The notes under the pieces: generated by a model
The model's input: the letters and a program-made list of their open reading frames with translations, nothing else
Told to the model about the DNA's origin: nothing
Database searches by the model: none
In this document: piece by piece, positions 20,486 to 64,000 of the stretch
How the letters are laid out: each line of letters opens with the position of its first letter
Position numbering within the stretch: position 1 is the first letter of the stretch
Virus record (IMG/VR): IMGVR_UViG_3300028573_000014
Location: 1-64,000 of that record
Source: a virus
Length of the DNA stretch: 64,000 nt
Strand: one strand, 5' to 3'
Made by a program: the position numbers and the translations under genes

Positions 20486-23400
20486 TTAGTTGGTACCGGT
20501 GGTTACGCCGGAGATGGAGACGGGAAGAACGCCCTTCATGACGAAGAACGCCTGGGGGTACACGATTTTCACATCCGCGTACACATAGATCAGCAGGCCA
20601 GCCTGCAAGTTCCCAGCGAAGGTCTGGTCCAGACGCACCTCAACCTGATCGCTCAGGCCGATGTACATATACTGCCAGTCGCCACCAAAGACATAGGACG
20701 AGTTGGTGCTGGTCCCTTCAACGACATTGGTCGGAATCTGGTTGGAGATCGCATATGGCATCGCCATGATCTCACGCTCGGCTGCGGCACGCCACGCAGG
20801 ACGCAGCAGAGGATTGCCCAGAGTGTCAGTCGCCAGCGTAAAGGCGCGGCTGATCTGGCTGTGGAGTGCGATACCGCGACGTGACCCGTCATCATAGGGC
20901 ACGTTGGCATCGTCCAGCAAACCAAACGCCTGACCAATATCCGTGAACTGAGGAATACGCCCGTTCCCGCCCATGTCATAGGTCTGAGCCGATGGTGTGT
21001 TCAGGATACCGACGATTTCCATACCGCCGCCGGACACGAGCGCACCGCCCGTACCAAGCAAAGCAGCCTTGTCGATCTTCAAGGCAATCGACTTCGCCAT
21101 CTGGTTGCGCAACTGCGACTCGGCTTGTGGAGTCATATTTGCTTCAACGTTGAAGGGGACCTTCACCAGGCTTGAGACACCGTGCGGGTACAACGTAACC
21201 GTGCGGTACCCAGGCTGGCTGTCAGAGACGGCCTGATTCTCACCAACCCATTGCGCATCGGGCGCTGAGTTCATGATAGGAACGGTCAGGACGTTCGTGC
21301 CCTGCATGTCGATGTGCTCAGCCCCAAGCTGATAACAAACGACTTTGGCACGCAGCGGGTCCAACACGACTGGAGAAATCTCCTGGTGCAGGATATAACC
21401 ACCGTTTGGACCCGAAGCGGAGGACATTGCCTTTTCCGCGCCGATCACAAAACGAGGACGTTCCATCCGCGCGATGCGCTTCAGGTCGGCATACACACCA
21501 GCCAGAGGCGTTTTGGTGATGCCAGTGTTTTGATTGATGCCCTTCTGGGCGATTGAACCAGTCATATATGGCCCCACTGACTTTGAACCACCGCCGCTTG
21601 ATAAGTGACGGCTAAGGACGGAATAGTTGTACGGTGCTGGATCGCTCATCGTCGCGGTAGGAACATCGTCCTTTTCGCTTGACATCGCAGCGCTGTACAG
21701 GTTGTTGAGGTGGCTGGTCACATCTTCGGCCTTGCTATCTTCGGGCATACCAAGTGCCTTGATCAGATCCGGGTGAGCTTTGCCTTCGGTATTAATCGCT
21801 GCAATGTGGTTGTCCATTGCACCGCGTACCGCAGTAGGCTCCGGTTCACAGCCATACATCTGTGCCAGGGCGTGCAGGGTTGATTCGGGCTGCTCGTCGG
21901 CATCGAAGTCGTCATTTGCATCATTGACTTCTTCGAGACCGTCCTTTGCAGCGTCTTCCTTCTGCTCTTCCTGGTCTTCCTTCTCGTCTTCTTTATCCAT
22001 TTTTCCCTCTCTTATTTCTGCTTTTGTGGCTTCCTCAAGCGTGTCAGTCGCCTCCCGCTCCTGCATCACACTCTTCAAAGCCAGTTCCAAACTCTTGGCG
22101 GCAAGCACGGGGCCAAGTCCCGGTTCGGCAGGGGTGCGAGTAAGGCTGCATCCCGCTAACGGCCACAATCCCAGATGTCCGTCAGCGGGGTCATACCCCT
22201 GCTGCGCATAATGGGAAAGGCTGTCACTAGAGTAGGCAAACACACCGTTCGCTGCGTCTTTCGCAGTGCGGACGTAAAGTGGATGGTCGGTGTGGAGAGC
22301 GTGCTCTCCCCAGATTCCCCGTGGGTACACCTTTACCAGGGTGCGTTGCCCAATAGGGTCCCCGCCGTAATCGGGGTTTTTGCCGTGTTCCATCCACAGA
22401 GGCGCGTTCGGGTAGTAATCCGCAAACGTTTTGGTCATGTCATCAAAAAAGGTATCCTGCAAATCGAGATTTTCAGGATCCGTGAAAAGCATCATCCAGC
22501 CCTCAACCGAGGTCGGTAGACCATCGACTGCCTTCGAGCCAATCATTGAGGCACGGTTGCAAGCACCCTGCGCTGCCAGCGTAGCCTTAACGTCATCCCC
22601 GGTTTCTTGCATCACCTGATCGTAGACTTTTGCCCACAGGCTAAAGTCTTTCTCGCTCAGATCGGATGGCATTTTGCCAGACAGATAAGCCGCAACCTTT
22701 GCCTTATCCTCTTTGGACAGGCCAAGTTCAGCCGCGCGTGCCCGAATGCGGGAACGAACTGTTGGCTTGTCAGCATCGGGAATGTCGGCACGATTACCGT
22801 GCGGAGGGTTAGGTCCCATCGCTGCGGCTGCCAGCAACACATGTCGAGCGTCTGGCATCGGCAGTTTCCACGAAGATGGTGTGTCCTTATCGGGCACATA
22901 ACCATACGTGTCAGGATTGGCATCCTTGCCTGCTGCTTCTTCCTCTGGCGCTTCACCGTAGAAGTAGGCATTGAAGTCTTCTGAGCCACGAGGATGATGA
23001 GCCTTTTCGCCTGCCACTTCATCGACTGCTGTTTCAGTCTCAGCAGGCGCATCGGAGATCTCTTCGATCACTTCCTCATCTGGCTCAGACTTGGTAGCAA
23101 CGGGCACTTCCCCGTGCGCATGGGCAATGGCTTCTTCGCGTGTGGCGTAGCCTTCTTCAGGAGAACGCACACCGGAAGTCATGTCCAGAACGCGGTATTT
23201 ACCGTCGGTCTTGCTCTTTACAATTTTCACTGTCAAGGACTTCTTTCCTTTCCCGCCGGATAGCGGAATGGTGTAATCCCCTGCCTCTCCATAGGATTCC
23301 CAGAGACTGTCAAAGGTCACAGGGACAGGTTGGAGTGGGATTGTCGGGGTAGGCATCTCTTTATCGATATAGGCCAACGTCATATGCGGCGTGTAGCCAT

Positions 23401-23863
23401 GAGTCTCCAGCGGATCGGCATCCGCACCTTTCAGGAAAGCAACCAGTGCCTGCCGGAAACGTGGAAGGTCAGGGCAATCGAAGTTCAGGTAGATGCAGTC
23501 CTTATCAGGCGCATCCATGAACCGACCAATGCCGTTCAGAGTGCCACTGAGCGCAGGCCAGCCCTGTGCGAACTTAGTCAGTTCGGACTCCAGCGCTTCC
23601 TCATCTGGCATCCAACCGGGATCATCAGTGCTGCCCAGATAGGCCAGCGTGACATGCATTTCATCGACTGGCATCAGGCAGTCTTCTGGTAGTCCAGCGC
23701 CCTTCGCCAGTGCGATCAGATGTTGGGCAATAACAGGCGGAATCTTGAACGCGATCATGATTCCGTCCTGGTGGTCAGCATCCTTTGCCGGGATACCAAT
23801 GGTAGAACGGAGAACATAACCGCCTGCTGCCCCTGTCGCGCTGCTCATCGCTTTGGCCGTCAT
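20486..23863 (-). CDS. Head polyprotein: 2H phosphoesterase + accessory domains + prohead protease + scaffold + HK97-fold major capsid protein
   Basis: HVTLAY and HMTLAY 2H motifs; DLQDTFF, EHG, YSS, SLTRTPAEP protease motifs; acidic scaffold; GGYIL, AQWVGE, IDKAALLGTG, GGDW capsid motifs. Confidence 0.85.
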   Translation of the reverse strand: MTAKAMSSATGAAGGYVLRSTIGIPAKDADHQDGIMIAFKIPPVIAQHLIALAKGAGLPEDCLMPVDEMHVTLAYLGSTDDPGWMPDEEALESELTKFAQGWPALSGTLNGIGRFMDAPDKDCIYLNFDCPDLPRFRQALVAFLKGADADPLETHGYTPHMTLAYIDKEMPTPTIPLQPVPVTFDSLWESYGEAGDYTIPLSGGKGKKSLTVKIVKSKTDGKYRVLDMTSGVRSPEEGYATREEAIAHAHGEVPVATKSEPDEEVIEEISDAPAETETAVDEVAGEKAHHPRGSEDFNAYFYGEAPEEEAAGKDANPDTYGYVPDKDTPSSWKLPMPDARHVLLAAAAMGPNPPHGNRADIPDADKPTVRSRIRARAAELGLSKEDKAKVAAYLSGKMPSDLSEKDFSLWAKVYDQVMQETGDDVKATLAAQGACNRASMIGSKAVDGLPTSVEGWMMLFTDPENLDLQDTFFDDMTKTFADYYPNAPLWMEHGKNPDYGGDPIGQRTLVKVYPRGIWGEHALHTDHPLYVRTAKDAANGVFAYSSDSLSHYAQQGYDPADGHLGLWPLAGCSLTRTPAEPGLGPVLAAKSLELALKSVMQEREATDTLEEATKAEIREGKMDKEDEKEDQEEQKEDAAKDGLEEVNDANDDFDADEQPESTLHALAQMYGCEPEPTAVRGAMDNHIAAINTEGKAHPDLIKALGMPEDSKAEDVTSHLNNLYSAAMSSEKDDVPTATMSDPAPYNYSVLSRHLSSGGGSKSVGPYMTGSIAQKGINQNTGITKTPLAGVYADLKRIARMERPRFVIGAEKAMSSASGPNGGYILHQEISPVVLDPLRAKVVCYQLGAEHIDMQGTNVLTVPIMNSAPDAQWVGENQAVSDSQPGYRTVTLYPHGVSSLVKVPFNVEANMTPQAESQLRNQMAKSIALKIDKAALLGTGGALVSGGGMEIVGILNTPSAQTYDMGGNGRIPQFTDIGQAFGLLDDANVPYDDGSRRGIALHSQISRAFTLATDTLGNPLLRPAWRAAAEREIMAMPYAISNQIPTNVVEGTSTNSSYVFGGDWQYMYIGLSDQVEVRLDQTFAGNLQAGLLIYVYADVKIVYPQAFFVMKGVLPVSISGVTTGTN

Positions 23864-53749: not shown

Positions 53750-54048
53750 TCGACATCCTCATAGGTTATCTCATCATCGGATGGCGGGAGTTCTTCGTCT
53801 GGCACCGGATAACCATATTCAATCTTCCCGTCTGGCGATTGGAACTCTGGGGAGAGGATGCCAGCTTTGCGAAGATGCTCGACAGGCTGGGCAGGCAGCG
53901 CTGCGATCAGTGTCTCTATCATCCACTGCGATGCCTTACCGCTCAATGCCAGCATACCCAGATATTCGTGTAACCGCTTCTGCTCACTGTCATCGGAGGA
54001 CAGGTTGAAGCCATGTCGCCAGATGTCTACGTTCTTTTTGTGGGACAT
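53746..54048 (-). CDS. RHH/ParR-like protein
   Basis: AAAGGTG SD; preceded by GTAAC/GTTAC palindromes; paralogue of 45084..45272. Confidence 0.55.
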   Translation of the reverse strand: MSHKKNVDIWRHGFNLSSDDSEQKRLHEYLGMLALSGKASQWMIETLIAALPAQPVEHLRKAGILSPEFQSPDGKIEYGYPVPDEELPPSDDEITYEDVD

Positions 54049-54058
54049 ATGTCACCTT

Positions 54059-54100
54059 TGTGTAACCGTTACATCACTGTTGAGTAAGGGTTACTCAACC
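54059..54100. repeat. Paired palindromes TGTAAC-c-GTTACA and GTTGAGTAA-ggg-TTACTCAAC
   Basis: Read directly; related boxes at 54462-54510 and 1855-1891. Confidence 0.65.
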
Positions 54101-54119
54101 CTTGTGTGACTGTTGTGCG

Positions 54120-54404
54120 TCACGCGCCTTGCCATCTTTCGTGGGTCAGTTCGTAGAACCGATCATATACATGATCGTCATCCTCTGGGACGAAGGCAGG
54201 ATCAAGTATCTTCAGCACTACCTGCTCGACGGTCAGATCATCCTTCGTGACCAGTCCATAGTCATATCCACCGCTGTCGATGTCAGGGTAGTAGTAGAAC
54301 GTCTCGCCTACCAGATCGAGCGACTTTATGTCCAGCTTATCCAGATCGTATAGCCCGATCACCATTTGTTGGAAGTCTCGTCCAGCCTGGTTGTTGCCCA
54401 TCAA
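54120..54404 (-). CDS. Acidic hypothetical protein, first gene of the leftward unit
   Basis: GAGGT SD downstream of the leftward promoter. Confidence 0.6.
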   Translation of the reverse strand: MMGNNQAGRDFQQMVIGLYDLDKLDIKSLDLVGETFYYYPDIDSGGYDYGLVTKDDLTVEQVVLKILDPAFVPEDDDHVYDRFYELTHERWQGA

Positions 54405-54427
54405 TACCTCGTTGTTATTTACTGTCT

Positions 54428-54456
54428 ATGATATGACCTCATATATCGTCTGTCAA
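54428..54456 (-). promoter_or_regulatory. Leftward sigma70 promoter
   Basis: TTGACA-17bp-TATCAT on the minus strand. Confidence 0.75.
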
Positions 54457-54814
54457 CACTCTTGTGTAACCGTTGAGTAAGTGTTGTGCTACCGTTGTGT
54501 AACTGTCACCCAACTGTTGTGTGATGGTCTATTTGAGAGTTGTCGTTTCATTGCGGAAGTGTTGATGCTCATCAATGATCCAGTTCGATTTTTTGATCTG
54601 GCCTTAGATCAGCTAACGCGACTGGGGCATCGCGGCTCGGCTATTAGTACCCCTCCGGGGATGGTATTATTGCAATGTTTACTGATTATTTCCGATAATA
54701 ACTATTATCGCGTAAGGTCGGCAAATTATGCGATAGCTAGGCGCTGGATTGCGATTGTGAACGATGGCACAAGCGCGGTTAAGTTCATTAACGAAGCATT
54801 GCCTAAAAATTGAT

Positions 54815-55141
54815 TTAAAATTGTTTAGTTCGTTCACTAAAGAATAGTTTCATGTCTCTAAGCAAAACGTAGTATTTAGCTTGCAATCCATAGGATCGGT
54901 TAAGCATGTTGATTGCACTATCTGGAATAGGATAGATTGGTACACTATGCGAGATCATAACGTACACATGAGGATTAGGTCGACGACCATAAATCAGGCG
55001 ATAAGCCTTATTGATCGTCATAGCATCATGACAGTTTTGAGTCCACAATTTTTCTGCGAAGCATTTACCGCGCTTCGTGGTCCAGAATGCCGGGTCTATC
55101 CCTTCGCACCATAACGGTATTAAATCACTTAGTTCTATCAT
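54815..55141 (-). CDS. Hypothetical protein
   Basis: MIELSDLIPLW...; TGCTACAAT extended -10 just upstream. Confidence 0.4.
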   Translation of the reverse strand: MIELSDLIPLWCEGIDPAFWTTKRGKCFAEKLWTQNCHDAMTINKAYRLIYGRRPNPHVYVMISHSVPIYPIPDSAINMLNRSYGLQAKYYVLLRDMKLFFSERTKQF

Positions 55142-55397
55142 AGTTAAGCGATTGTAGCACGTAGCAGGCGCAAGGCGCAACGATGCATCGTAACAGTACT
55201 GAATTACAGGGCCGCAATCGATAGCGAAGCATAGCACGAAGGATTGCGCAATCGATGCAAGGCGAAGCATAGGCCAGGTCGTAGCAGGCGCGATCATAGT
55301 CCAGTGTTATCGCCTGCTCAATTTGCTGGCAAGGTAGAACAGAATAGAACATAAACCTACGCTTTGAAAATTGGTGAAAATTGGTTGTCTAAACCTA

Positions 55398-55426
55398 TTG
55401 ACAGTGTACTGCAATAAGAGTATAAT
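55398..55426 (+). promoter_or_regulatory. Consensus early promoter P1
   Basis: TTGACA-17bp-TATAAT. Confidence 0.9.
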
Positions 55427-55466
55427 TCTCTCATAAGACGCGAGCACACACGAAGGATTAAACAAC

Positions 55467-55688
55467 ATGTTTTCACTAAAAGCCACAATCGCCGAAAGAA
55501 ACAACGAAACAATAGTGATGTTTTCCGACGAAGGTGCGAAGTTTCAGGAAGATTGCTTAAACACTGTCGGGTTAGTCAAGTTCTCACCCGCTCACAAAAT
55601 GATCGGTTCACTAGTAACGGCTATCAACAATAACCAGATTTCAGTAAGCGAAGCAACCAAAAAGTTTAACGCCGCATTAAGCAACTAA
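55467..55688 (+). CDS. Early hypothetical protein
   Basis: AAGGA SD after P1. Confidence 0.7.
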   Translation: MFSLKATIAERNNETIVMFSDEGAKFQEDCLNTVGLVKFSPAHKMIGSLVTAINNNQISVSEATKKFNAALSN

Positions 55689-55718
55689 GTCAATCGACAC
55701 AATAAGGGATAAGCTACC

Positions 55719-56186
55719 ATGATCACAAATTGCCCTAAGTGCGGCGGACTCGGTCACATTGCCTGCTATGGTCACATAGCGCAAGGTGCGTGCTTTAAAT
55801 GTAATGGGACGGGCAAAATTAATGCACCGGTGGCACGCAAGGATCGCAAGGTGCAATCCCCTGAGCGCAAAGCAGAATTAGCGGCATTAAAAGCAGATAA
55901 GCTAATTATTGGTACAGTCGATGACGCGATCAAACGTGCCATTGATGCTATTGCAGATAAGCCATCGTATAAGGCAGAAATAAGCTTGCTTATCAATTGC
56001 TTCGTGCGTGAGGTAAGCATAGCAGGCTTGACACTCTACCAGGCAAGGATCGCAGATGAGAAGTTAAGCAAGGCGATCTACCGCTTGCCATCTAGCAGCG
56101 ATCTATCCTGGTTGACTATCAACAAGCCTTACACGCTTAACGATGGCATTATAAAGCAGGCAATCCATAATCACATAGGACGGTAA
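55719..56186 (+). CDS. Early protein with DnaJ-type Zn finger
   Basis: CPKCGGLG...CFKCNGTG. Confidence 0.75.
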   Translation: MITNCPKCGGLGHIACYGHIAQGACFKCNGTGKINAPVARKDRKVQSPERKAELAALKADKLIIGTVDDAIKRAIDAIADKPSYKAEISLLINCFVREVSIAGLTLYQARIADEKLSKAIYRLPSSSDLSWLTINKPYTLNDGIIKQAIHNHIGR

Positions 56187-56189
56187 AAA

Positions 56190-56384
56190 ATGATCGAACG
56201 AATAAGCATTGTACGCAAACTCATAGAACTAAACCAGAAACAACTTGAACACGATCAATTGATTCTAGAGTCCTCGTCTTACAATAGCGCTCAATGGTTA
56301 GTTTATCGGCAAGCGGTAGAGTCAGATAAACGGACAATTGAGCGTTATGAGAACGAATTAAAACAATTGGAGAATCAATCATGA
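56190..56384 (+). CDS. Small coiled-coil protein
   Basis: Operon position. Confidence 0.6.
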   Translation: MIERISIVRKLIELNQKQLEHDQLILESSSYNSAQWLVYRQAVESDKRTIERYENELKQLENQS

Positions 56385-56605
56385 TCGCATTAACCATAGT
56401 CTCACTTCGCACCGGTGATCTTGTATTGCAAGACACGTTTAACGATAGCTTCGTGTGGGAAATTATCGCCACATACACAGAATGCACCGATCTTCCCTAC
56501 GATTGTACTAGCTTCGTAGCAGGCGCGTTTTATGTGGCCCTGGATGATATCGATAACTGAGAATTTTCGTTATGTGTCTGTTATGCTAATTCAGTAAATT
56601 GGTTA

Positions 56606-56634
56606 TTGACAGTACACTGCAAAAAGCATATAAT
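56606..56634 (+). promoter_or_regulatory. Consensus early promoter P2
   Basis: TTGACA-17bp-TATAAT. Confidence 0.9.
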
Positions 56635-56672
56635 GGTATTCATAGACACGCGAGCACATGAGGGTAACGAAA

Positions 56673-56912
56673 ATGAACGGGTTTAACTTCACTTCACAGA
56701 ATTGGCAAGTCGACGAACACGAAGTAACGCCTACATTCGATAATGATGTTTTTAGCGCCATCGCCGCCGGCCAGGCTTGTGCAATTGCCCGTAAAGATAA
56801 GAGCGGTATTGAGTTTTTCAAGAGCATTGCAAAGAAAGGCAACATCGCATCGTTAACCAGCAAGGAGCAATCCCTAATCCGTATCTGGTATATGCGCTCA
56901 TTGGAGAGCTAA
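56673..56912 (+). CDS. Early hypothetical protein
   Basis: GAGGG SD then ATG 56673. Confidence 0.65.
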   Translation: MNGFNFTSQNWQVDEHEVTPTFDNDVFSAIAAGQACAIARKDKSGIEFFKSIAKKGNIASLTSKEQSLIRIWYMRSLES

Positions 56913-56918
56913 GTCAAC

Positions 56919-57137
56919 ATGAACACGGTAAACGATAAGCGCCTGCTCTTAATCTCAGTACTGGAAGATCGCCGCACCAATGCCATTATGCGGGGAAACT
57001 TCAAAACCGCGAAAAACTTAACACGTTGGATCTGCTTCTTGCGTGGTCCTGCTACCAGATACGATATCGCGGCCCTGTATACAGAATATCGATGCAATCA
57101 TGAAACTATCGCGCCTGCTCAGTTAACTCTATTTTAA
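56919..57137 (+). CDS. Early hypothetical protein ending in QLTLF
   Basis: GGAG SD; C-terminal clamp-binding-like pentapeptide. Confidence 0.6.
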   Translation: MNTVNDKRLLLISVLEDRRTNAIMRGNFKTAKNLTRWICFLRGPATRYDIAALYTEYRCNHETIAPAQLTLF

Positions 57138-57256
57138 AAGGGGTGATCACCATGAAACAAGCGAAGCATATGAAACGCGCCACGCGTAACAATCGGCAAT
57201 TTGTCAAGGCTTATCTCAAGTCTAAGACTCGCAAGTTCTAAAAGGATATACCAATC

Positions 57257-57556
57257 ATGATCAAGTCAATGTTTTCTATCGATGATGAACCGGGCGTTAT
57301 CTATCCTGGTTATACAGATGAACTAACCGCTTACATGGGGTTTGAGGATCCTTCGTTTGAACTTGCGATAGTACTGGAAATTTTAAAGGATCGGAGCGTC
57401 GAATATACATTCGATAACGATACTTTCAGCATACCAGAATTCGCGGATTTTACGCCAGAAAACGTATACAGCGGATTCGATATCGCCATCGATGGCGAAG
57501 TGAAGCACGTGTATAACGTGGGACAATGGTTGTTTATCTGGAATAGGGCGGTTTAG
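57257..57556 (+). CDS. Small acidic early protein
   Basis: AAGGA SD; Asp/Glu-rich. Confidence 0.7.
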   Translation: MIKSMFSIDDEPGVIYPGYTDELTAYMGFEDPSFELAIVLEILKDRSVEYTFDNDTFSIPEFADFTPENVYSGFDIAIDGEVKHVYNVGQWLFIWNRAV

Positions 57557-57565
57557 TAACACATA

Positions 57566-57593
57566 GCGCCTGCTAATTGGAGTTAGCAGGCGC
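57566..57593 (+). terminator. 11-bp hairpin built from two AGCAGGCGC copies
   Basis: GCGCCTGCTAA-ttggag-TTAGCAGGCGC right after a stop codon; no U-tract. Confidence 0.55.
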
Positions 57594-57630
57594 AATTGTG
57601 AGACTAAGCATATTACAGGGGATATCATCG

Positions 57631-58380
57631 ATGTTAACCAATGGTTGTAGAGTAGCAGGCATATACGATGGCAAGTCATTTACTGGCAACTTGTATGAGT
57701 TAAATCATATTAGCAGTATTGAGTTAGACAATGGGATCATAGGGTTTGACGGGCGATATACTGAGCGCTTGCATATGTACACTGATAACCATAAGGCAAG
57801 CCAGCAATTTTGGGAAATCCCAGAATCCCCGGTTAATAGTGAATATGCCATTGGTGATCTCTCCGAGATTGCACGCGAATCCCTTGCCAAACAATTTAAG
57901 CCTGTAAAGTTAAGTGAATATCGCGCTATGGTGCAAAATAGGTTAATGACCTATAAGACGGTAAAGCAGGCAGTAACTTGTGAATATGGTCATAAGCATA
58001 TGATTGATCGTCGTGTCCCGGTTGCGCCTGCTATCGATGAGAAGCTTCTCAATATTGAATTCTTTTTCTACTGTTTAGCAGAATACGCGCGTTATCTGGA
58101 GGAACGTGAGTATGTGGCACGTAACGAAACGTGGAATCGCCTGGCTCGCAAGTTGTCATTGTCGGCAATTGCCTATGATGGCACGTTTGAGGGACTAGAT
58201 ACAGAGACAATTAAGCATATACGTGCGGAATTGTCGAAGCAATACGACGATCTATGCTTCGATTATCAGGTCAAAATCTATGGTGCGAAGTATATGCCGC
58301 GTCATATCCGATCTTGTGAGCTATGCTACAAAAACGATCTAGGCAAGCGTTATAGTGCTTACCTCGAAGGGATTAAATAA
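57631..58380 (+). CDS. Early hypothetical protein
   Basis: AGGGG SD before ATG 57631. Confidence 0.65.
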   Translation: MLTNGCRVAGIYDGKSFTGNLYELNHISSIELDNGIIGFDGRYTERLHMYTDNHKASQQFWEIPESPVNSEYAIGDLSEIARESLAKQFKPVKLSEYRAMVQNRLMTYKTVKQAVTCEYGHKHMIDRRVPVAPAIDEKLLNIEFFFYCLAEYARYLEEREYVARNETWNRLARKLSLSAIAYDGTFEGLDTETIKHIRAELSKQYDDLCFDYQVKIYGAKYMPRHIRSCELCYKNDLGKRYSAYLEGIK

Positions 58381-58382
58381 CT

Positions 58383-58901
58383 ATGTGTAACGCGAAGCAT
58401 GCCTATAAATCAGCATACCGTAAAGAGCGCCAGTACTTTAACAACCTGATAAATCCCCTGGATTATCATGATCGCTATGTCGATACTCTACAGGAAAAAC
58501 AGACTCGTGAGACCTATATGTTTTGGGACGGTATGCAGAATCCGTGGAGTAATGATCGTTACTTCGATGCAATGATCGCCTGCTATGCATCGAAGTCAAT
58601 CTATACGCTTAAAGTACGATCTATGATGCTATGTCAATCATGTGGTGCGGTAAGTGATGAGTTAGACCATGATACTTGTCCTCATTGCCTGCTTATGGCG
58701 AGTCAGGCACTACTTAACGCTGCCAATGATACTTATGAGGATATCGCCAAAATATGGATCAATACCTTCGTGTGGCGTGATGATAATTACTTCGAGATTC
58801 AGCGCTTATACGATGATGCAAGCCAGCACGTGCAAGCAATGATCAATCTACAGGATGAGTATCATGTGGCATATTACAATGCCACCGGTAAGGAATCCTA
58901 A
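58383..58901 (+). CDS. Early hypothetical protein with Zn ribbon
   Basis: CQSCG...CPHC; N-terminus similar to 59752..60162. Confidence 0.65.
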   Translation: MCNAKHAYKSAYRKERQYFNNLINPLDYHDRYVDTLQEKQTRETYMFWDGMQNPWSNDRYFDAMIACYASKSIYTLKVRSMMLCQSCGAVSDELDHDTCPHCLLMASQALLNAANDTYEDIAKIWINTFVWRDDNYFEIQRLYDDASQHVQAMINLQDEYHVAYYNATGKES

Positions 58902-58902
58902 C

Positions 58903-59136
58903 ATGATCCTGCTACTATGTGCAAAGAATCCACGCACGAAGCAGGAACGAAACTACATTCTAAAAATGTGCTATAAGGCTGCCCGCGCGGTAAATGGCGA
59001 TAAGACTGGGAATAATAATGGATCGAGAGTCTTAGATGGCAAGGTGATCATTGTAGACTTAGCTGGCAATGCCAGAATTGAAACACAGACAACATATACT
59101 CATCGCCCGCTCTTCACATGGATAGACCAGGACTAA
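58903..59136 (+). CDS. Early hypothetical protein
   Basis: AAGGA SD. Confidence 0.55.
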   Translation: MILLLCAKNPRTKQERNYILKMCYKAARAVNGDKTGNNNGSRVLDGKVIIVDLAGNARIETQTTYTHRPLFTWIDQD

Positions 59137-59142
59137 AACAAC

Positions 59143-59739
59143 ATGAAAACTAAACGACAAGTTGCGCCAATGCTCACAAAAAACCAGTTGATTGATCTAC
59201 TCATTACAGGAATCGCGCATGAACTTGTGAGCGATTATAAAAGCAACTATCCCTCGATTCAAACGCCTGCTAAGAATTACAAGACAATTGAGAAGTTAGT
59301 AAAAACAGGCGTTTTTAAATGGTCTCGCATATACCAATCGGGTGATCATGGTGCTGGCGTATACTTTACTGAGCAGGCGCTAAAACGATATGAGAAAATG
59401 ATCCGAGATCGCGCTTATGGGATCGTGCTCCGAGAGTCAATCTTTGATCTTAAATACGCTCCGAGATTGCGTGAACAGTTTGCAAACGAATCATGGTTAA
59501 AGTACTGCAATACCGAGCCAACTATCTGGCGCTGGTGGAATCACGGTAAGGGAAGTGCTTTTGAGTTTTTAGAGATAACGTTTACTAATGGGCTGGATCA
59601 ACGTGTCGAGATTAACTGCAATTATGACACCGATTGTATGGTCTCTTATGAGGAACGTTTACAACATGCTGATCTGCAATACTCACGCGCTGAAATTGCA
59701 CGTCTACCAATGGTAGAGCTATATCCCTTCTCACTATAG
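59143..59739 (+). CDS. Early hypothetical protein
   Basis: AGGA SD. Confidence 0.65.
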   Translation: MKTKRQVAPMLTKNQLIDLLITGIAHELVSDYKSNYPSIQTPAKNYKTIEKLVKTGVFKWSRIYQSGDHGAGVYFTEQALKRYEKMIRDRAYGIVLRESIFDLKYAPRLREQFANESWLKYCNTEPTIWRWWNHGKGSAFEFLEITFTNGLDQRVEINCNYDTDCMVSYEERLQHADLQYSRAEIARLPMVELYPFSL

Positions 59740-59751
59740 AGGATTCTAACT

Positions 59752-60162
59752 ATGAACACTAAACAAGCCTATGTCGAAGCCTACCGCGTATACCGTCAAT
59801 TTGATGGATCTTGCACCAATTTACAACTATATAGAACGTCTATACTTTGCAAGTATGGCACTATAGGCGCGAAGGCAATTGAATCGAGGGATAACCGATC
59901 CTATGCTTCGCCAATGCCAACAAAAAAGCATGCTTATCCTGCTATTTATCGGGCAACCTATCGGTTAGGGCAAATGTACGAACGTTCGATCTTGCTGGCA
60001 AGGTTTACACGCAATCCAGGAGACTACGACAAGGCGATAGAAGCGGAAAAGATCTTAGATGGCCTGGTGCGAAGCAATCCAGAACACTGGTTATATACTG
60101 ATTTTGTCAATGGGCGCAATTCCATCCGCGCGGCCCGACAATTGGAGTTGATCAATTTATAA
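59752..60162 (+). CDS. Early hypothetical protein
   Basis: GAGGA SD. Confidence 0.65.
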   Translation: MNTKQAYVEAYRVYRQFDGSCTNLQLYRTSILCKYGTIGAKAIESRDNRSYASPMPTKKHAYPAIYRATYRLGQMYERSILLARFTRNPGDYDKAIEAEKILDGLVRSNPEHWLYTDFVNGRNSIRAARQLELINL

Positions 60163-60173
60163 CACTTTCGTTA

Positions 60174-60202
60174 TTGACAGTACACTGTAAACCTGCTACA
60201 AT
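60174..60202 (+). promoter_or_regulatory. Early promoter P3
   Basis: TTGACA-17bp-TACAAT. Confidence 0.85.
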
Positions 60203-60232
60203 TCGATACATAAGCAAATGAGGGACTAAACC

Positions 60233-61852
60233 ATGACAGTAACAAACAACATGCGCCAGAATTGGCAACAATTGAGCGTAAAAAGCAATAATCCTGATTT
60301 CAAGCCTTTCTATGTGCCAATGGCGACAAGCTACCAGGGACGGCGCGCCAATTATGATTATGCAAGGGTTGAGTATACTTTCGAGTACTGGGCAAAGTCA
60401 TTGCAAGGCGAAGCGTCGAATGATCCTTACCTGAGCAATCATGATACAGCATACTTCGCCGACGAATACCGGCAGGCTTATGAAAAGTTTTTAGATAAGT
60501 TTGCCAGCATCGAAGCAGACAAGCGCCAAAAGGATGAGCACGCGGTAAGGATCGCGCTATATCATGCCAACGTGGCAAACGAAACAACATTCGACATTGC
60601 CAGCTATGCCAACGATATGATCTCGGATTATGAGCATAGCGCCGGGTCAATTGTGTCAAGTGTCCTCCAGGAGAATTTAGAGCAGGCGCTTAAACTGCTA
60701 GAAAAAGGATACGGTAAAACGCCAGATCAACATATGGTGCAGATTAAATCTGGCAAGTATGAATTGCAATTAACTGCTACCAATGGTTCTATGTGGTTAC
60801 AAACTGGCGTTACTTATGCGCCAGGGCTGCCGGTTAATATCTTCCTTCCCGCGAAGCGCTTGCAAGACCTGGTTAAGGCATTGCCAGCATTTAGAATCGA
60901 TATGAATACCACGACGCGCGAAGTTGACAGTATTAAGCACTTATACGCGCCTGCTTTGCACCTTGTGTCTGGTTGCGCTAGTGCCAATGTGATCGGCACT
61001 AGAACGCCTAAAAAGGTGCGGGAAATGCCAGCGCTACCAATTGGTGACTATATCCTGATTAATGATGTTATTGGCTTTCGTAGCAAGTTGGAGCAGGCGC
61101 TTGCAATAACGGCAAAAAATGATCGTCGCCCTATACTCGAATGTGTAAACCTCAAGATTGAGAATAACACGCTATCGATTGTCGCCGCGGATGGCTGGCG
61201 CTTGTCGGTAGATAAGATCGAAGTTGAATCGGGCGATATCGCTGGCAATTGGAATTTACACAATACTGATATCCGCGCTTTACTGGCAATACTGCCAGCC
61301 AAAAACGCTCAATCTACATTGACTCTAAGCACGGCGGGCGAGTGTATGTTTTTTGTGTATGATCGCGTGATTGCCTGCTTTACCGCTGTTAAGGGAAAGT
61401 TTCCAGATTATGATCAGATTATTCCTCGTCAACCTGCTATGAACGTAGCGTTAAACCTTAACGATACTATCCGCCAGATAAAGAGTCTCAAACCCTTCTA
61501 TAAGGAAAGCGCTAATACTGTCAAAATTGAGATTGTCCAGGGGACAAGCGGCAATATATATCATGATCCTGCTACCGTAACACTGAGCGCCACAAGCCAG
61601 GAAAAAGGATCTAGAACGGTAGAGCTTAGAGCAGGCGAGTCAACCGGTAATATCAAGGCTTCGGTCAATGGTGCTTACTTGCTGGAGATACTCGAAAAAA
61701 TGGCGAAGGCGCTACCCAAAACAAAAAGCACCATTGAGCCTTCCTTCCTGCTCAGTTTGAGCGATCAAGCACCCTGGAAGATCGACTCGTGGGACGCGCA
61801 AGGCTGCCCGGGTACGACTTATGTTATTATGCCAATGAGTGAACCACGCTAG
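60233..61852 (+). CDS. dnaN: DNA polymerase III beta-clamp homologue with N-terminal extension
   Basis: LQENLEQAL, LTATN, RPILECV, VAADGWRL, GKFPDYDQIIP, VNGAYLLEIL, YVIMPM. Confidence 0.85.
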   Translation: MTVTNNMRQNWQQLSVKSNNPDFKPFYVPMATSYQGRRANYDYARVEYTFEYWAKSLQGEASNDPYLSNHDTAYFADEYRQAYEKFLDKFASIEADKRQKDEHAVRIALYHANVANETTFDIASYANDMISDYEHSAGSIVSSVLQENLEQALKLLEKGYGKTPDQHMVQIKSGKYELQLTATNGSMWLQTGVTYAPGLPVNIFLPAKRLQDLVKALPAFRIDMNTTTREVDSIKHLYAPALHLVSGCASANVIGTRTPKKVREMPALPIGDYILINDVIGFRSKLEQALAITAKNDRRPILECVNLKIENNTLSIVAADGWRLSVDKIEVESGDIAGNWNLHNTDIRALLAILPAKNAQSTLTLSTAGECMFFVYDRVIACFTAVKGKFPDYDQIIPRQPAMNVALNLNDTIRQIKSLKPFYKESANTVKIEIVQGTSGNIYHDPATVTLSATSQEKGSRTVELRAGESTGNIKASVNGAYLLEILEKMAKALPKTKSTIEPSFLLSLSDQAPWKIDSWDAQGCPGTTYVIMPMSEPR

Positions 61853-61868
61853 AAAGTTGCTATACTTT

Positions 61869-61902
61869 GGTGATTGACAGATAATTGTCAATCACCTATA
61901 CT
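61869..61902 (+). promoter_or_regulatory. Early promoter P4 overlapped by an 11-bp palindrome
   Basis: TTGACA(61874)-17bp-TATACT; GGTGATTGACA-gataat-TGTCAATCACC. Confidence 0.85.
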
Positions 61903-61938
61903 AAACCTACACGACGCGAACAATTGGAGAAAACAACT

Positions 61939-62601
61939 ATGTATAAATCAAACGACACAACCAGCAAAGTTAAGACCCTCGCCGACGAACTTTACAGCGC
62001 CTTCCAGAACGACAAGCGCAACGATGGGACAGAGTTTGTACATTTGAAGGATGGATCGCCAGAATGGATGACTCAGGTTATCCACACGGCACACGGTGAC
62101 AAGTTCCCCGATGATACCGTTTACGAATTTGTATATCGCGCGGCGATGGCGCTGGCAGACGCTGGCGATTATTTACAGGATGCCATCTCGGAGATTGAGC
62201 CAGATATCTATACTCATGATTTAACCGCGTGGCTTCATGCACGGGTGGATCACATTGAGTATATTGATCAGGCTATCTCGGAATTCGGGCAATTTGACAG
62301 CGGTTTCAACCTGCTCTCAGCGGCCCAGAAAATGCAGATCGATGAGATTAGTTACAGTGTACTGTCAAGCCTGGAAAGCCTCGCAGATGACGCAATAGAG
62401 GAAGAATACCAGGCAGACGAAGAAGAAGAATCACACGGCTTTGACTGGGATAATTATCCGCCGATTCAGTCTCGATTTTACTTCGATCAATTGTGGAAGG
62501 GACGCGATTATTTGCTGGCGGATGTTCACAATAACGATCTAGTCCTGGCTGATCTCGATTATTGGTTCTGGCTTGATACCAATACCTACAGCGCCGAATA
62601 A
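61939..62601 (+). CDS. Ocr-like acidic DNA-mimic (putative anti-restriction) protein
   Basis: Very Asp/Glu-rich; DYLQDAISEIEPDIYTHDL resembles the T7 Ocr core; EEEYQADEEEE tract. Confidence 0.55.
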   Translation: MYKSNDTTSKVKTLADELYSAFQNDKRNDGTEFVHLKDGSPEWMTQVIHTAHGDKFPDDTVYEFVYRAAMALADAGDYLQDAISEIEPDIYTHDLTAWLHARVDHIEYIDQAISEFGQFDSGFNLLSAAQKMQIDEISYSVLSSLESLADDAIEEEYQADEEEESHGFDWDNYPPIQSRFYFDQLWKGRDYLLADVHNNDLVLADLDYWFWLDTNTYSAE

Positions 62602-62616
62602 GCCAGCGTAAACCGC

Positions 62617-62638
62617 GCGGACCTGGCAACAGGTCCGC
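62617..62638 (+). terminator. GCAA-tetraloop hairpin
   Basis: GCGGACCTG-GCAA-CAGGTCCGC. Confidence 0.6.
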
Positions 62639-62675
62639 TATACCTCATCAAAGCATAAGAGAAGGCTAAAACACT

Positions 62676-63317
62676 ATGAAAACAGACAATATACACGGCT
62701 TCACAGTAGGACCAGCAAAGATCGGCACAAACAAGATCGCTATCACACGAATCTCAACCGGTAGGGTTGTTCGCTCCTTCAATGCTAGCGATGCTTATAC
62801 CAATTGCCAGCAGGCGCTTGAATGGCTCAAGGAAAACAAAAAAGGCGCTCCGATCTATGTCTCCGACTCTGAGCCGAAATTCTCGCAGTATGTGATCGAT
62901 CATCCTGGCAATGGATACTATGATAAAGCGACCAGCAAGCGCATTAACGCGGCAGCCCAAAAGATCGAGGCGATCAAGTATCTGCAAACCATCGTTAAAC
63001 CAGGCCAAACCGTCTCGGTCTCGCTGGTTAGCGTGGCACGCTCCGGCCTGAGCAGGCGAGTCAAGTTGTTCTATACCGTGAAGGGTCAAAACCTGAATAT
63101 TACAGCCTGCGCGGCGACTATTCTGGGCTGGCATTATGACGGGGACTCGGTGCGTGTCGATGGCTGCGGCACAGATGCGGCGTTCCAGGTTGTGTATCAC
63201 CTTTCCAGCGCTCTATACCCGAAAGGCGCAAAAGTGCCCGCCAGCTATCGCGGGAAGAAGGATGCAAGCGGTTTTGTTCGTGATGGCGGTTATGTTCTGC
63301 TGAATCGCTGGCTATAA
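62676..63317 (+). CDS. Conserved phage hypothetical protein
   Basis: VARSGLSR...VDGCGTDAAFQVVYHL. Confidence 0.7.
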   Translation: MKTDNIHGFTVGPAKIGTNKIAITRISTGRVVRSFNASDAYTNCQQALEWLKENKKGAPIYVSDSEPKFSQYVIDHPGNGYYDKATSKRINAAAQKIEAIKYLQTIVKPGQTVSVSLVSVARSGLSRRVKLFYTVKGQNLNITACAATILGWHYDGDSVRVDGCGTDAAFQVVYHLSSALYPKGAKVPASYRGKKDASGFVRDGGYVLLNRWL

Positions 63318-63377
63318 ACTGACAGATCGCACGTAAGCACGCTATACCCGAAAAGCAATAGAGAAAGACAGCGCAAC

Positions 63378-64000
63378 ATGAAAACACAATTGACTCCACG
63401 GACAAGTATCAAGACTATTCAGCAAATGATCGCAGATGATTTCCAGGTCTTTATCGACAATGATCTGGCTGAAAACATCCGCAAGCACGCAGGCCGCGAT
63501 CTGATCGTGTGGACTCCTGATCATTTAAAGTGTGTAGCCAATGATCTGCAACTTGAGATTATGACTAACAGCATTGTGTGGTTTGGCACTGGCTATACCA
63601 ATAAGGAATGGAACATTGAAGCGCCAAACCAGATAGATGATTGGAATACTGTTATCAACCATCTCACAACGCCAGAGTTTGATCCCTTCGTGGATGAGTG
63701 GCACGCCGATCAACTTCGCGGTGCATCGTTTGAGTTTGTGCGCACCTTCCTGGATCAGTCTAATAATGATTATTGGTACTGGGAAGACTACAACGTATAC
63801 CCGTTTGAGCATCAGGCGCAGCCCGTTGTCAAGTTGACCGCGTATCGGCTCGGCCTGCTGCGAGATTGTAACCGCGAAAATGGGATCGATGCGCAGACAT
63901 TGACGCGCTTTAAACCACAGGCAAAAAGCGCTGTAAACTGGCTCATCCGACAGGGACTCATGATCAAGCATAAGAATGGCGACATGTTTGTAGCCCTTCT
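63378..64000 (+). CDS. Hypothetical protein, truncated by the window end
   Basis: Open frame MKTQLTPRTS... read manually to the end of the sequence. Confidence 0.65.
   Translation, partial: MKTQLTPRTSIKTIQQMIADDFQVFIDNDLAENIRKHAGRDLIVWTPDHLKCVANDLQLEIMTNSIVWFGTGYTNKEWNIEAPNQIDDWNTVINHLTTPEFDPFVDEWHADQLRGASFEFVRTFLDQSNNDYWYWEDYNVYPFEHQAQPVVKLTAYRLGLLRDCNRENGIDAQTLTRFKPQAKSAVNWLIRQGLMIKHKNGDMFVAL

Follow-up and report, generated by a model that had tools for sequence, protein, structure and literature searches.

A strict heptamer, AGCAGGC, concentrated in the putative early operon of an IMG/VR virus

In phage T5, the first DNA to enter the cell is the part of the genome that has been freed of restriction sites, and the repeats of its pre-early region lie in a non-coding injection-stop region. 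DNA uptake sequences and uptake signal sequences (DUS/USS; e.g. GCCGTCTGAA and AAGTGCGGT) are ~9-12 bp long, occur genome-wide about once per kb in a competent host and are shared by the phages of that host. Chi, the hotspot word recognized by the host helicase-nuclease (RecBCD or AddAB), is short (5-8 nucleotides), strict and non-palindromic, is over-represented independently of coding and in the core genome of the host, and depends on its orientation for its action. In the Chi-rich phages LLS and P1 of E. coli and MD8 of Pseudomonas, Chi outnumbers every other octamer, and its copies are biased towards one strand (20:3 in LLS and 32:0 in MD8) (PMC12315714). Cluster A mycobacteriophages carry >20 asymmetric 13-mers, termed stoperators, that are bound by a single monomeric immunity repressor (L5 gp71 / TipsytheTRex repressor), which silences transcription beyond promoters; the sites occupy promoters and short intergenic gaps genome-wide, in an orientation that follows transcription and is required (PMC9283540). 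Here we describe the heptamer AGCAGGC in a window of 64,000 nucleotides (bases 1-64000 of the linear and incomplete 79,953-bp virus record IMGVR_UViG_3300028573_000014 of IMG/VR), where its copies crowd into a single arm that coincides with a putative early operon.

Enrichment, anatomy and placement of AGCAGGC

The original prediction, which relied on a manual count, listed 26 exact copies of AGCAGGC in this arm. A pattern search recovered exactly the same coordinates within 55163..63859, with 14 copies on the plus strand and 12 on the minus strand:

55163, 55283, 56021, 56155, 56518, 57585, 57654, 57965, 59372, 60681, 61092, 61630, 62809, 63051; plus strand; AGCAGGC copies
55312, 55761, 56941, 57113, 57568, 58026, 58578, 58687, 59265, 60949, 61373, 63853; minus strand; AGCAGGC copies

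The remaining 55 kb of the window contain 22 further copies, and 30 of the 56 copies in the whole 79,953-bp record fall outside the domain, in ~70.5 kb. The density is therefore not equal genome-wide, being 3.0 per kb within 55.16-63.86 kb and 0.43 per kb in the other parts of the record. Markov models predict 1.14 (order-1) or 1.38 (order-2) copies in the domain; the earlier expectation, at uniform composition, was about one copy. When all 7-mers were scored in 8-kb sliding windows, AGCAGGC reached z = 18-21 and was the unique outlier genome-wide; the best 7-mer in the other windows usually reached z = 6-8, with values up to 12.5 at the cluster of a second word described below. Permuting synonymous codons within each gene, such that both the proteins and the codon usage are kept, gave 5.4 +/- 1.5 copies (maximum 10 in 500 permutations), and permuting whole codons gave 3.2 +/- 1.1 (maximum 8). 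The 26 copies observed exceed every codon shuffle, and thus neither codon usage nor codon-pair usage, which had been raised as a possible cause, explains the count. The enrichment is local and independent of coding.

The core of the word is exact. Together, its 21 one-mismatch neighbours total 34 copies against 23-25 expected, and an A precedes 26 of the 29 GCAGGC copies in the arm. Beyond the core, position +8 is G in 18/26 copies (p = 5e-7), giving AGCAGGCG, and position +9 is C in 13/26, giving the 9-mer AGCAGGCGC; the earlier remark that the word is often extended to this 9-mer therefore holds for half of the copies. Position +10 is T in 14/26, and there is a weak 5' preference for c-a-t before the core, including C at -3. 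Among the 9-mers that differ from AGCAGGCGC by one mismatch, five deviate solely at the final base, and the only two with a mismatch in the core (62934 and 63811) both sit at the domain's right edge. Some sub-families, TAAGAGCAGGCGCTTA for instance, are found repeatedly among the copies. The information beyond the core would fit a footprint of ~10-13 bp, as protein sites typically have. A longer repeat or mobile element was ruled out as the source of the word, as similarity between copies ends beyond ~14-18 bp. Two copies of the 9-mer form an inverted pair:

57566..57593; both strands; GCGCCTGCTAA-6-TTAGCAGGCGC, an inverted pair of the 9-mer with an 11-bp stem, intergenic and before the largest orphan early gene

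The same pair also scored as terminator-like on the minus strand.

Relative to the open reading frames (ORFs), 12 copies are in sense orientation, 12 are antisense and two are intergenic, such that 24/26 lie inside ORFs and the description of the word as occurring both inside and between genes is borne out. Many different ORFs are involved, and each of the six frames, three sense and three antisense, contains copies. The density of the copies is ~1 per 335 bp. Their spacing averages 348 bp with a standard deviation of 325 bp; because mean and standard deviation are nearly the same, the distribution is Poisson-like, which rules out periodic phasing. No favoured relative orientation was found between neighbouring copies. 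A codon or peptide repeat was ruled out as the origin of the word by the frames in which it occurs and by the shuffles, and a promoter or RNA-level signal was rejected since copies are found on both strands and in all frames, without fixed orientation or position. Together, the all-frame placement and the shuffle results support the conclusion that AGCAGGC is a signal selected at the level of DNA, independently of strand and frame. Of the readings originally offered (coating or protective binding sites, Chi- or uptake-like signals, methylation signals), this shared core holds, while no single one of them stands out.

The early operon, its composition and its relatives

Genes in the record run leftward from ~55.3 to 3.3 kb, rightward from 55.47 to 66.8 kb and leftward again, in a replication block, from 79.9 to 67.6 kb. 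The first leftward set comprises unknown, sugar, aminotransferase and ThyX genes, followed by those for terminase, portal, capsid polyprotein and tail. The features of the rightward segment that bear on AGCAGGC are the following:

55398..55426; plus strand; early promoter P1, TTGACA-17-TATAAT, whose -35 hexamer is overlapped by the palindrome CAGTGTACTG, a probable operator
56606..56634; plus strand; early promoter P2, TTGACA-17-TATAAT, with the leader CATAGACACGCGAGCACA in common with P1
60174..60202; plus strand; early promoter P3, TTGACA-17-TACAAT, whose spacer holds AGCAGGT (a one-mismatch word) on the minus strand
55467..62601; plus strand; early operon genes, ~16 small ORFs, nearly all orphans
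55719-56186; plus strand; early operon gene for a DnaJ-type zinc-finger protein
60233-61852; plus strand; early operon gene for a DnaN-like sliding clamp with a 140-residue N-terminal extension
62638..64000, running on to 66244; plus strand; opening of the following block, which carries a second regional word, CTATACC, as its mark

Promoters P1-P3 form a near-identical sigma-70 family with a common TATTGACAGT(RY)ACTG (55391-55456, 56599-56664 and 60167-60212), and the palindrome CAGTRYACTG that overlaps the -35 element of each is a probable operator. A fourth CAGTRYACTG palindrome is located at 62352-62368, inside a gene and on the opposite strand, without a -10 element. We infer with good reason that the 55.4-62.6 kb block is an early operon read by the host RNA polymerase. 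The name "early arm" used in the original prediction is in this respect plausible, as the AGCAGGC domain matches a plus-strand operon with three consensus promoters. The domain extends from 55163 to ~62.8 kb and then fades to 63.9 kb, the transcription unit starts at P1 (55398), and AGCAGGC fades exactly where the strictly polar word CTATACC begins (62638). Given the start at P1 and the takeover by CTATACC, the AGCAGGC domain coincides with one transcription unit.

CTATACC is found ten times within 62638-66244, always on the plus strand (0.16 copies expected), and six times elsewhere in 80 kb. It often lies within gGCTATACCc, and the shorter TATACC occurs 15 times on the plus strand of the same interval. 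The copies at 62638 and 63342 precede start codons by 36-38 bp, and a conserved leader and ATGAAAAC come after them. CTATACC may be a middle-promoter or transcript-start element. The fixed-orientation, gene-positioned behaviour of a promoter or RNA signal is thus displayed by CTATACC and not by AGCAGGC.

The arm is also a compositional domain. Guanine-plus-cytosine (GC) content is 42-48% across 54-63 kb versus ~50-56% elsewhere, consistent with the AT-richer DNA noted at the outset, and GATC is 2.2-2.3-fold over-represented at 54001-63000 (87 copies, 1 per 103 bp) and ~1.1-fold elsewhere. Several 6-bp palindromes (CTGCAG, CAGCTG, GTGCAC, GGCGCC, CGGCCG and CCTAGG) are absent from the entire record (0 copies), and GCATGC is present in two copies versus 48 expected, both of them in the arm. 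Over the 14 purged 6-bp palindromes, the arm contains 9 copies versus 27.8 expected and the rest of the genome 8 versus 294, such that the purge is ~12-fold weaker in the early arm than in the remaining genome. The strong genome-wide avoidance indicates that the phage is under restriction pressure and is not broadly protected by modification. The weak purge in the arm suggests that this part is either evolutionarily younger or freed from restriction pressure; a younger arm is supported by the clamp and by a neighbouring 457-residue protein, which lack homologues among 5.8 and 1.84 billion proteins, respectively, while the terminase has relatives of 55-69% identity. Being the least purged part, the arm is opposite to the logic of T5/T7, which speaks against naked first-injected DNA, and the arm contradicts that logic unless it is shielded or evolutionarily young. 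The proposal that the arm is first-injected found no support: the record is incomplete and has no known genome end, the terminase belongs to the Terminase_6 type (PF03237/PF17289), and the arm is less purged. In addition, the palindrome AGCGCT is 2.4-fold over-represented throughout the record.

With the arm as query, megablast matched none of 50,697 phage records. The clamp protein had no match in IMG/VR or in the phage collection and, among 5.8 billion clusters, retrieved itself only; for the neighbouring 457-residue protein, only fragments were found among 1.84 billion representatives. A TerL profile run against IMG/VR, GTDB genomes and Joint Genome Institute metagenomes gave matches of <=46% identity, and closer TerL relatives (55-69% identity) were found in Logan contigs. 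The closest TerL relatives in genomes were on contigs of metagenome-assembled genomes of Acidobacteriota and Chloroflexota (<=44% identity). Scanning IMG/VR for the early-promoter pattern produced single matches at chance level, and the scan for inverted word pairs matched only GC-rich contigs, in which the word is codon-driven. The sequencing runs listed as containing the arm are all rhizosphere metagenomes of 2019, with no RNA run among them. In four of these runs the population was near-clonal: its 18 differences left every AGCAGGC core untouched, and they give no power for a conservation test.

Regarding the host, no transfer RNA genes were found in the window, and comparison of DnaB was uninformative. 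Counts of the word in 5+5 genomes with distant TerL relatives and in two phylum samples of 301+301 genomes, one of which consisted of ~1 Mb genomes, gave no interpretable outlier and no strand skew, with a reversed control that was not CpG-matched. In one chromosome examined, plus-strand copies of the word were evenly spread, giving no replichore skew. The GCAGGCGC-type 8-mer was common in genomes wherever the codons CAG-CAG-GCG were common.

Several further features of the record were observed. Within the arm, the orphan early proteins encoded at 58383-58901 and 59752-60162 (plus strand) have alike N-termini (AYKSAYRKERQYF and AYVEAYRVYRQF) and, because of this similarity, are probably paralogues. 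CAATTG is enriched in the arm, which holds 18 of the 34 copies in the record (55994-63392), often as CAATTGGAG directly before start codons, a position that links the motif to the ribosome-binding site. Within the replication block, six copies of the palindromic unit GGTACTAAACCAGGTTTAGTA lie at record positions 77692-77790, inside the replication-initiator gene (76765-78147, minus strand), and this cluster is likely to be the origin of replication. AGCAGGC was itself considered as a replication iteron and rejected, being spread over 8.7 kb, whereas the actual iteron cluster is the one in the initiator gene. An intein that contains Hint and LAGLIDADG homing-endonuclease domains interrupts the DnaB-type helicase (record 74382-76799, minus strand). 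In the capsid polyprotein (1125 residues; 20486-23863, minus strand), an N-terminal region (residues 64-186) that precedes the major head protein domain matches RNA-ligase/2H-type PHROGs. Upstream of the packaging genes, at 29000-50100 on the minus strand, there is a cluster of aminotransferase, glycosyltransferase, S-adenosylmethionine-dependent-methyltransferase-like, polyamine-aminopropyltransferase-like and ThyX genes that could constitute a DNA- or surface-modification pathway.

Candidate readings of the word

We tentatively read the AGCAGGC copies as recognition sites of a putative sequence-specific DNA-binding protein that marks the early operon, and hold this reading with rather less than even confidence. 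According to the model, the word recognized on double-stranded DNA would be AGCAGGC, preferably AGCAGGCGC, with weak flanks (c-a-t before and t after), and the candidate protein would occupy its sites regardless of strand, frame or gene boundary. The reader would more likely be encoded by the phage, within the same module, and by binding it would distinguish the 8-kb early segment from the remaining chromosome. The most likely use would be operon-wide occupancy at the early-to-middle switch, silencing or roadblocking early transcription; a second possible use would be shielding of the early segment. What we infer here is the recognition of AGCAGGC by a protein as duplex DNA, the identity of the reader and the effect of its binding. 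The orientation-blind use of the word (14:12 between strands, 12 sense and 12 antisense) would be expected for duplex occupancy and not for promoters, RNA signals or polar single-stranded DNA signals. Domain marking is further supported by the confinement of core-mismatch 9-mers to the right edge and by limits that match the transcription unit, and the weak palindrome purge would suit a segment that is shielded or, alternatively, a module that evolves separately and brings its own sites and reader. A broader version of this reading, which is possible but doubtful, holds that the early operon is a self-contained, addressed chromosome domain, in which a strict 7-9-bp word about every 330 bp would allow a dedicated phage protein to distinguish early DNA from any other, and to switch off the block or shield it from nucleases as a unit. 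The relaxed palindrome purge in the arm would then be the footprint of shielding.

Several observations weigh against recognition by such a protein. Pfam and PHROG scans of all arm proteins, together with two Atlas look-ups, returned no DNA-binding family matches among the early proteins, nearly all of them orphans. Basic proteins are encoded at 56919-57137, 59143-59739, 59752-60162, 62676-63317 and record 65207-65449. The only clear helix-turn-helix protein encoded nearby (record 65207-65449, weak excisionase-type match) could equally serve the operator palindrome of the promoters. The exact 7-bp core, with almost no excess of one-mismatch neighbours (34 versus 23-25 expected), is sharper than most sets of transcription-factor sites, and such exactness looks more like the word of an enzyme (Chi, a restriction-modification system or a nickase). 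Moreover, AGCAGGC is ~2-fold enriched outside the domain (30 copies versus 15.9 +/- 3.4 under synonymous shuffling), where a domain-only mark needs none; these outside copies are mainly in sense orientation (21:9), and the word has thus not been removed from the remaining genome. Finally, sites ~330 bp apart could shield or silence the DNA between them only through hypothetical spreading or looping.

In an unlikely alternative, AGCAGGC(GC) would be a RecBCD/AddAB hotspot or nuclease-attenuating sequence of the host, accumulated by the phage to survive or exploit the enzyme, as in the Chi-rich phages LLS, P1 and MD8. The word has the right form for a Chi, being short, strict, non-palindromic, GC-rich and selected independently of coding, and GCAGGCGC (13 copies) is one of eight positions away from the Pseudomonas syringae Chi GCTGGCGC (PMC5959072). 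Phages without a recombination module of their own hold 23-50 clustered Chi sites (PMC12315714), and neither a recombinase nor a RecBCD inhibitor was recognized among ~60 scanned proteins; this last argument is weak, given how many ORFs lack annotation and that the record misses ~16 kb of the genome. The ~2-fold enrichment outside the arm would also be accommodated. However, Chi acts in one orientation, whereas AGCAGGC is 14:12 in the domain and its bias outside follows the sense of the genes. The obligatory 5' A (26/29) falls outside the alignment with the known 8-mer Chi, the GC tail is optional, and the phage shows no enrichment of known Chi words. A copy every 335 bp, with limits at a transcription unit rather than at a DNA end, is unlike the described cases, and the word screens of host genomes gave no interpretable signal. 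The original suggestion of a Chi- or uptake-like signal thus survives for the form of Chi and falters on its orientation; for uptake there was nothing in favour of it, and DNA uptake sequences were rejected, since AGCAGGC is limited to one domain instead of being genome-wide and is unlike the DUS/USS words.

A strict, short and asymmetric word is typical of Type IIS, IIG and III methyltransferase specificities, and AGCAGGC, with GATC, might accordingly be the target of a phage or host DNA methyltransferase or base modifier that times, tunes (e.g. through hemimethylation after replication) or protects the early operon. This would account for the excess of GATC in exactly the same domain, the record encodes a candidate beta-class N6/N4 DNA methyltransferase (72118-73551), and the sugar, aminotransferase and aminopropyltransferase-like genes could form a DNA-modification pathway. 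Nevertheless, an epigenetic mark appears improbable: the candidate methyltransferase matches its families weakly (25.7 bits to PF01555, where the cut-off is 26.7 bits), the strong avoidance of 6-bp palindromes indicates a phage that is not broadly protected by modification, and we know of no regulatory scheme built on 26 intragenic copies of a non-palindromic 7-mer. Least probable of the explanations considered is that the word is a by-product, the arm being a recently acquired or fast-turnover module whose AGCAGGC copies, AT-richness, GATC excess and unpurged palindromes would stem from a different history or from biased mutation or gene conversion. The arm is indeed compositionally distinct in several independent respects, and the contrast between its homologue-free proteins and the terminase fits rapid turnover. 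Yet a 20-fold excess of an exact 7-mer without a comparable excess of one-mismatch words is unlike drift or foreign composition, the copies are no remnants of a longer repeat or mobile element, and they occur in all frames of many different genes; an origin in a donor genome would merely relocate the question.

Comparison with described systems

Explanations of how phage genes are timed usually consider one promoter after another, and an operon-wide label of the kind proposed for AGCAGGC would point to a whole chromosome domain as the unit that is regulated or protected. If true, it would imply a sequence-specific protein of a new kind, potentially useful as a tool. Should AGCAGGC turn out to be a Chi, that of an uncultured soil host, the word would provide both the recombination hotspot of this host and a handle for phage-host prediction. 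The site set is clean, with 26 exact copies and sharp limits, which makes the question directly testable. To our knowledge, a strict heptamer with a density of 3 per kb that occupies both strands within the genes of one early operon has not been described in any system.

Of the three systems closest to it, the Chi-rich phages resemble this virus in that one strict, GC-rich, non-palindromic word is the most over-represented, regionally and independently of codons. They differ in that AGCAGGC shows no orientation bias (14:12) and has a density 5-6 times higher; their Chi sites are concentrated near the genome end, whereas AGCAGGC is confined to a transcription unit and has an obligatory 5' A. 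The T5 first-step-transfer (pre-early) region is similar in having small early genes, a distinct composition and strong host-type promoters. Here, however, the copies occur within genes, and no part of the genome is purged less than the arm, as opposed to the site-free first-entering DNA of T5.

The stoperators, with at least 20 asymmetric copies, compare with the 26 copies of AGCAGGC and provide a precedent for many asymmetric sites being read by one phage protein. Nonetheless, AGCAGGC has a core of 7-9 bp with weak flanks rather than a 13-mer, and 24/26 copies are within ORFs of one 8.7-kb operon rather than intergenic and genome-wide. The operon is unidirectional, but the orientation of the copies in its ORFs is random (12 sense, 12 antisense), and Pfam/PHROG scans of the arm proteins found no stoperator-type repressor. 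AGCAGGC is thus not a member of the stoperators, from which it departs in intergenic location, genome-wide distribution and orientation alike. Reader and purpose aside, it belongs with a known kind, the selected recognition words of phage genomes.

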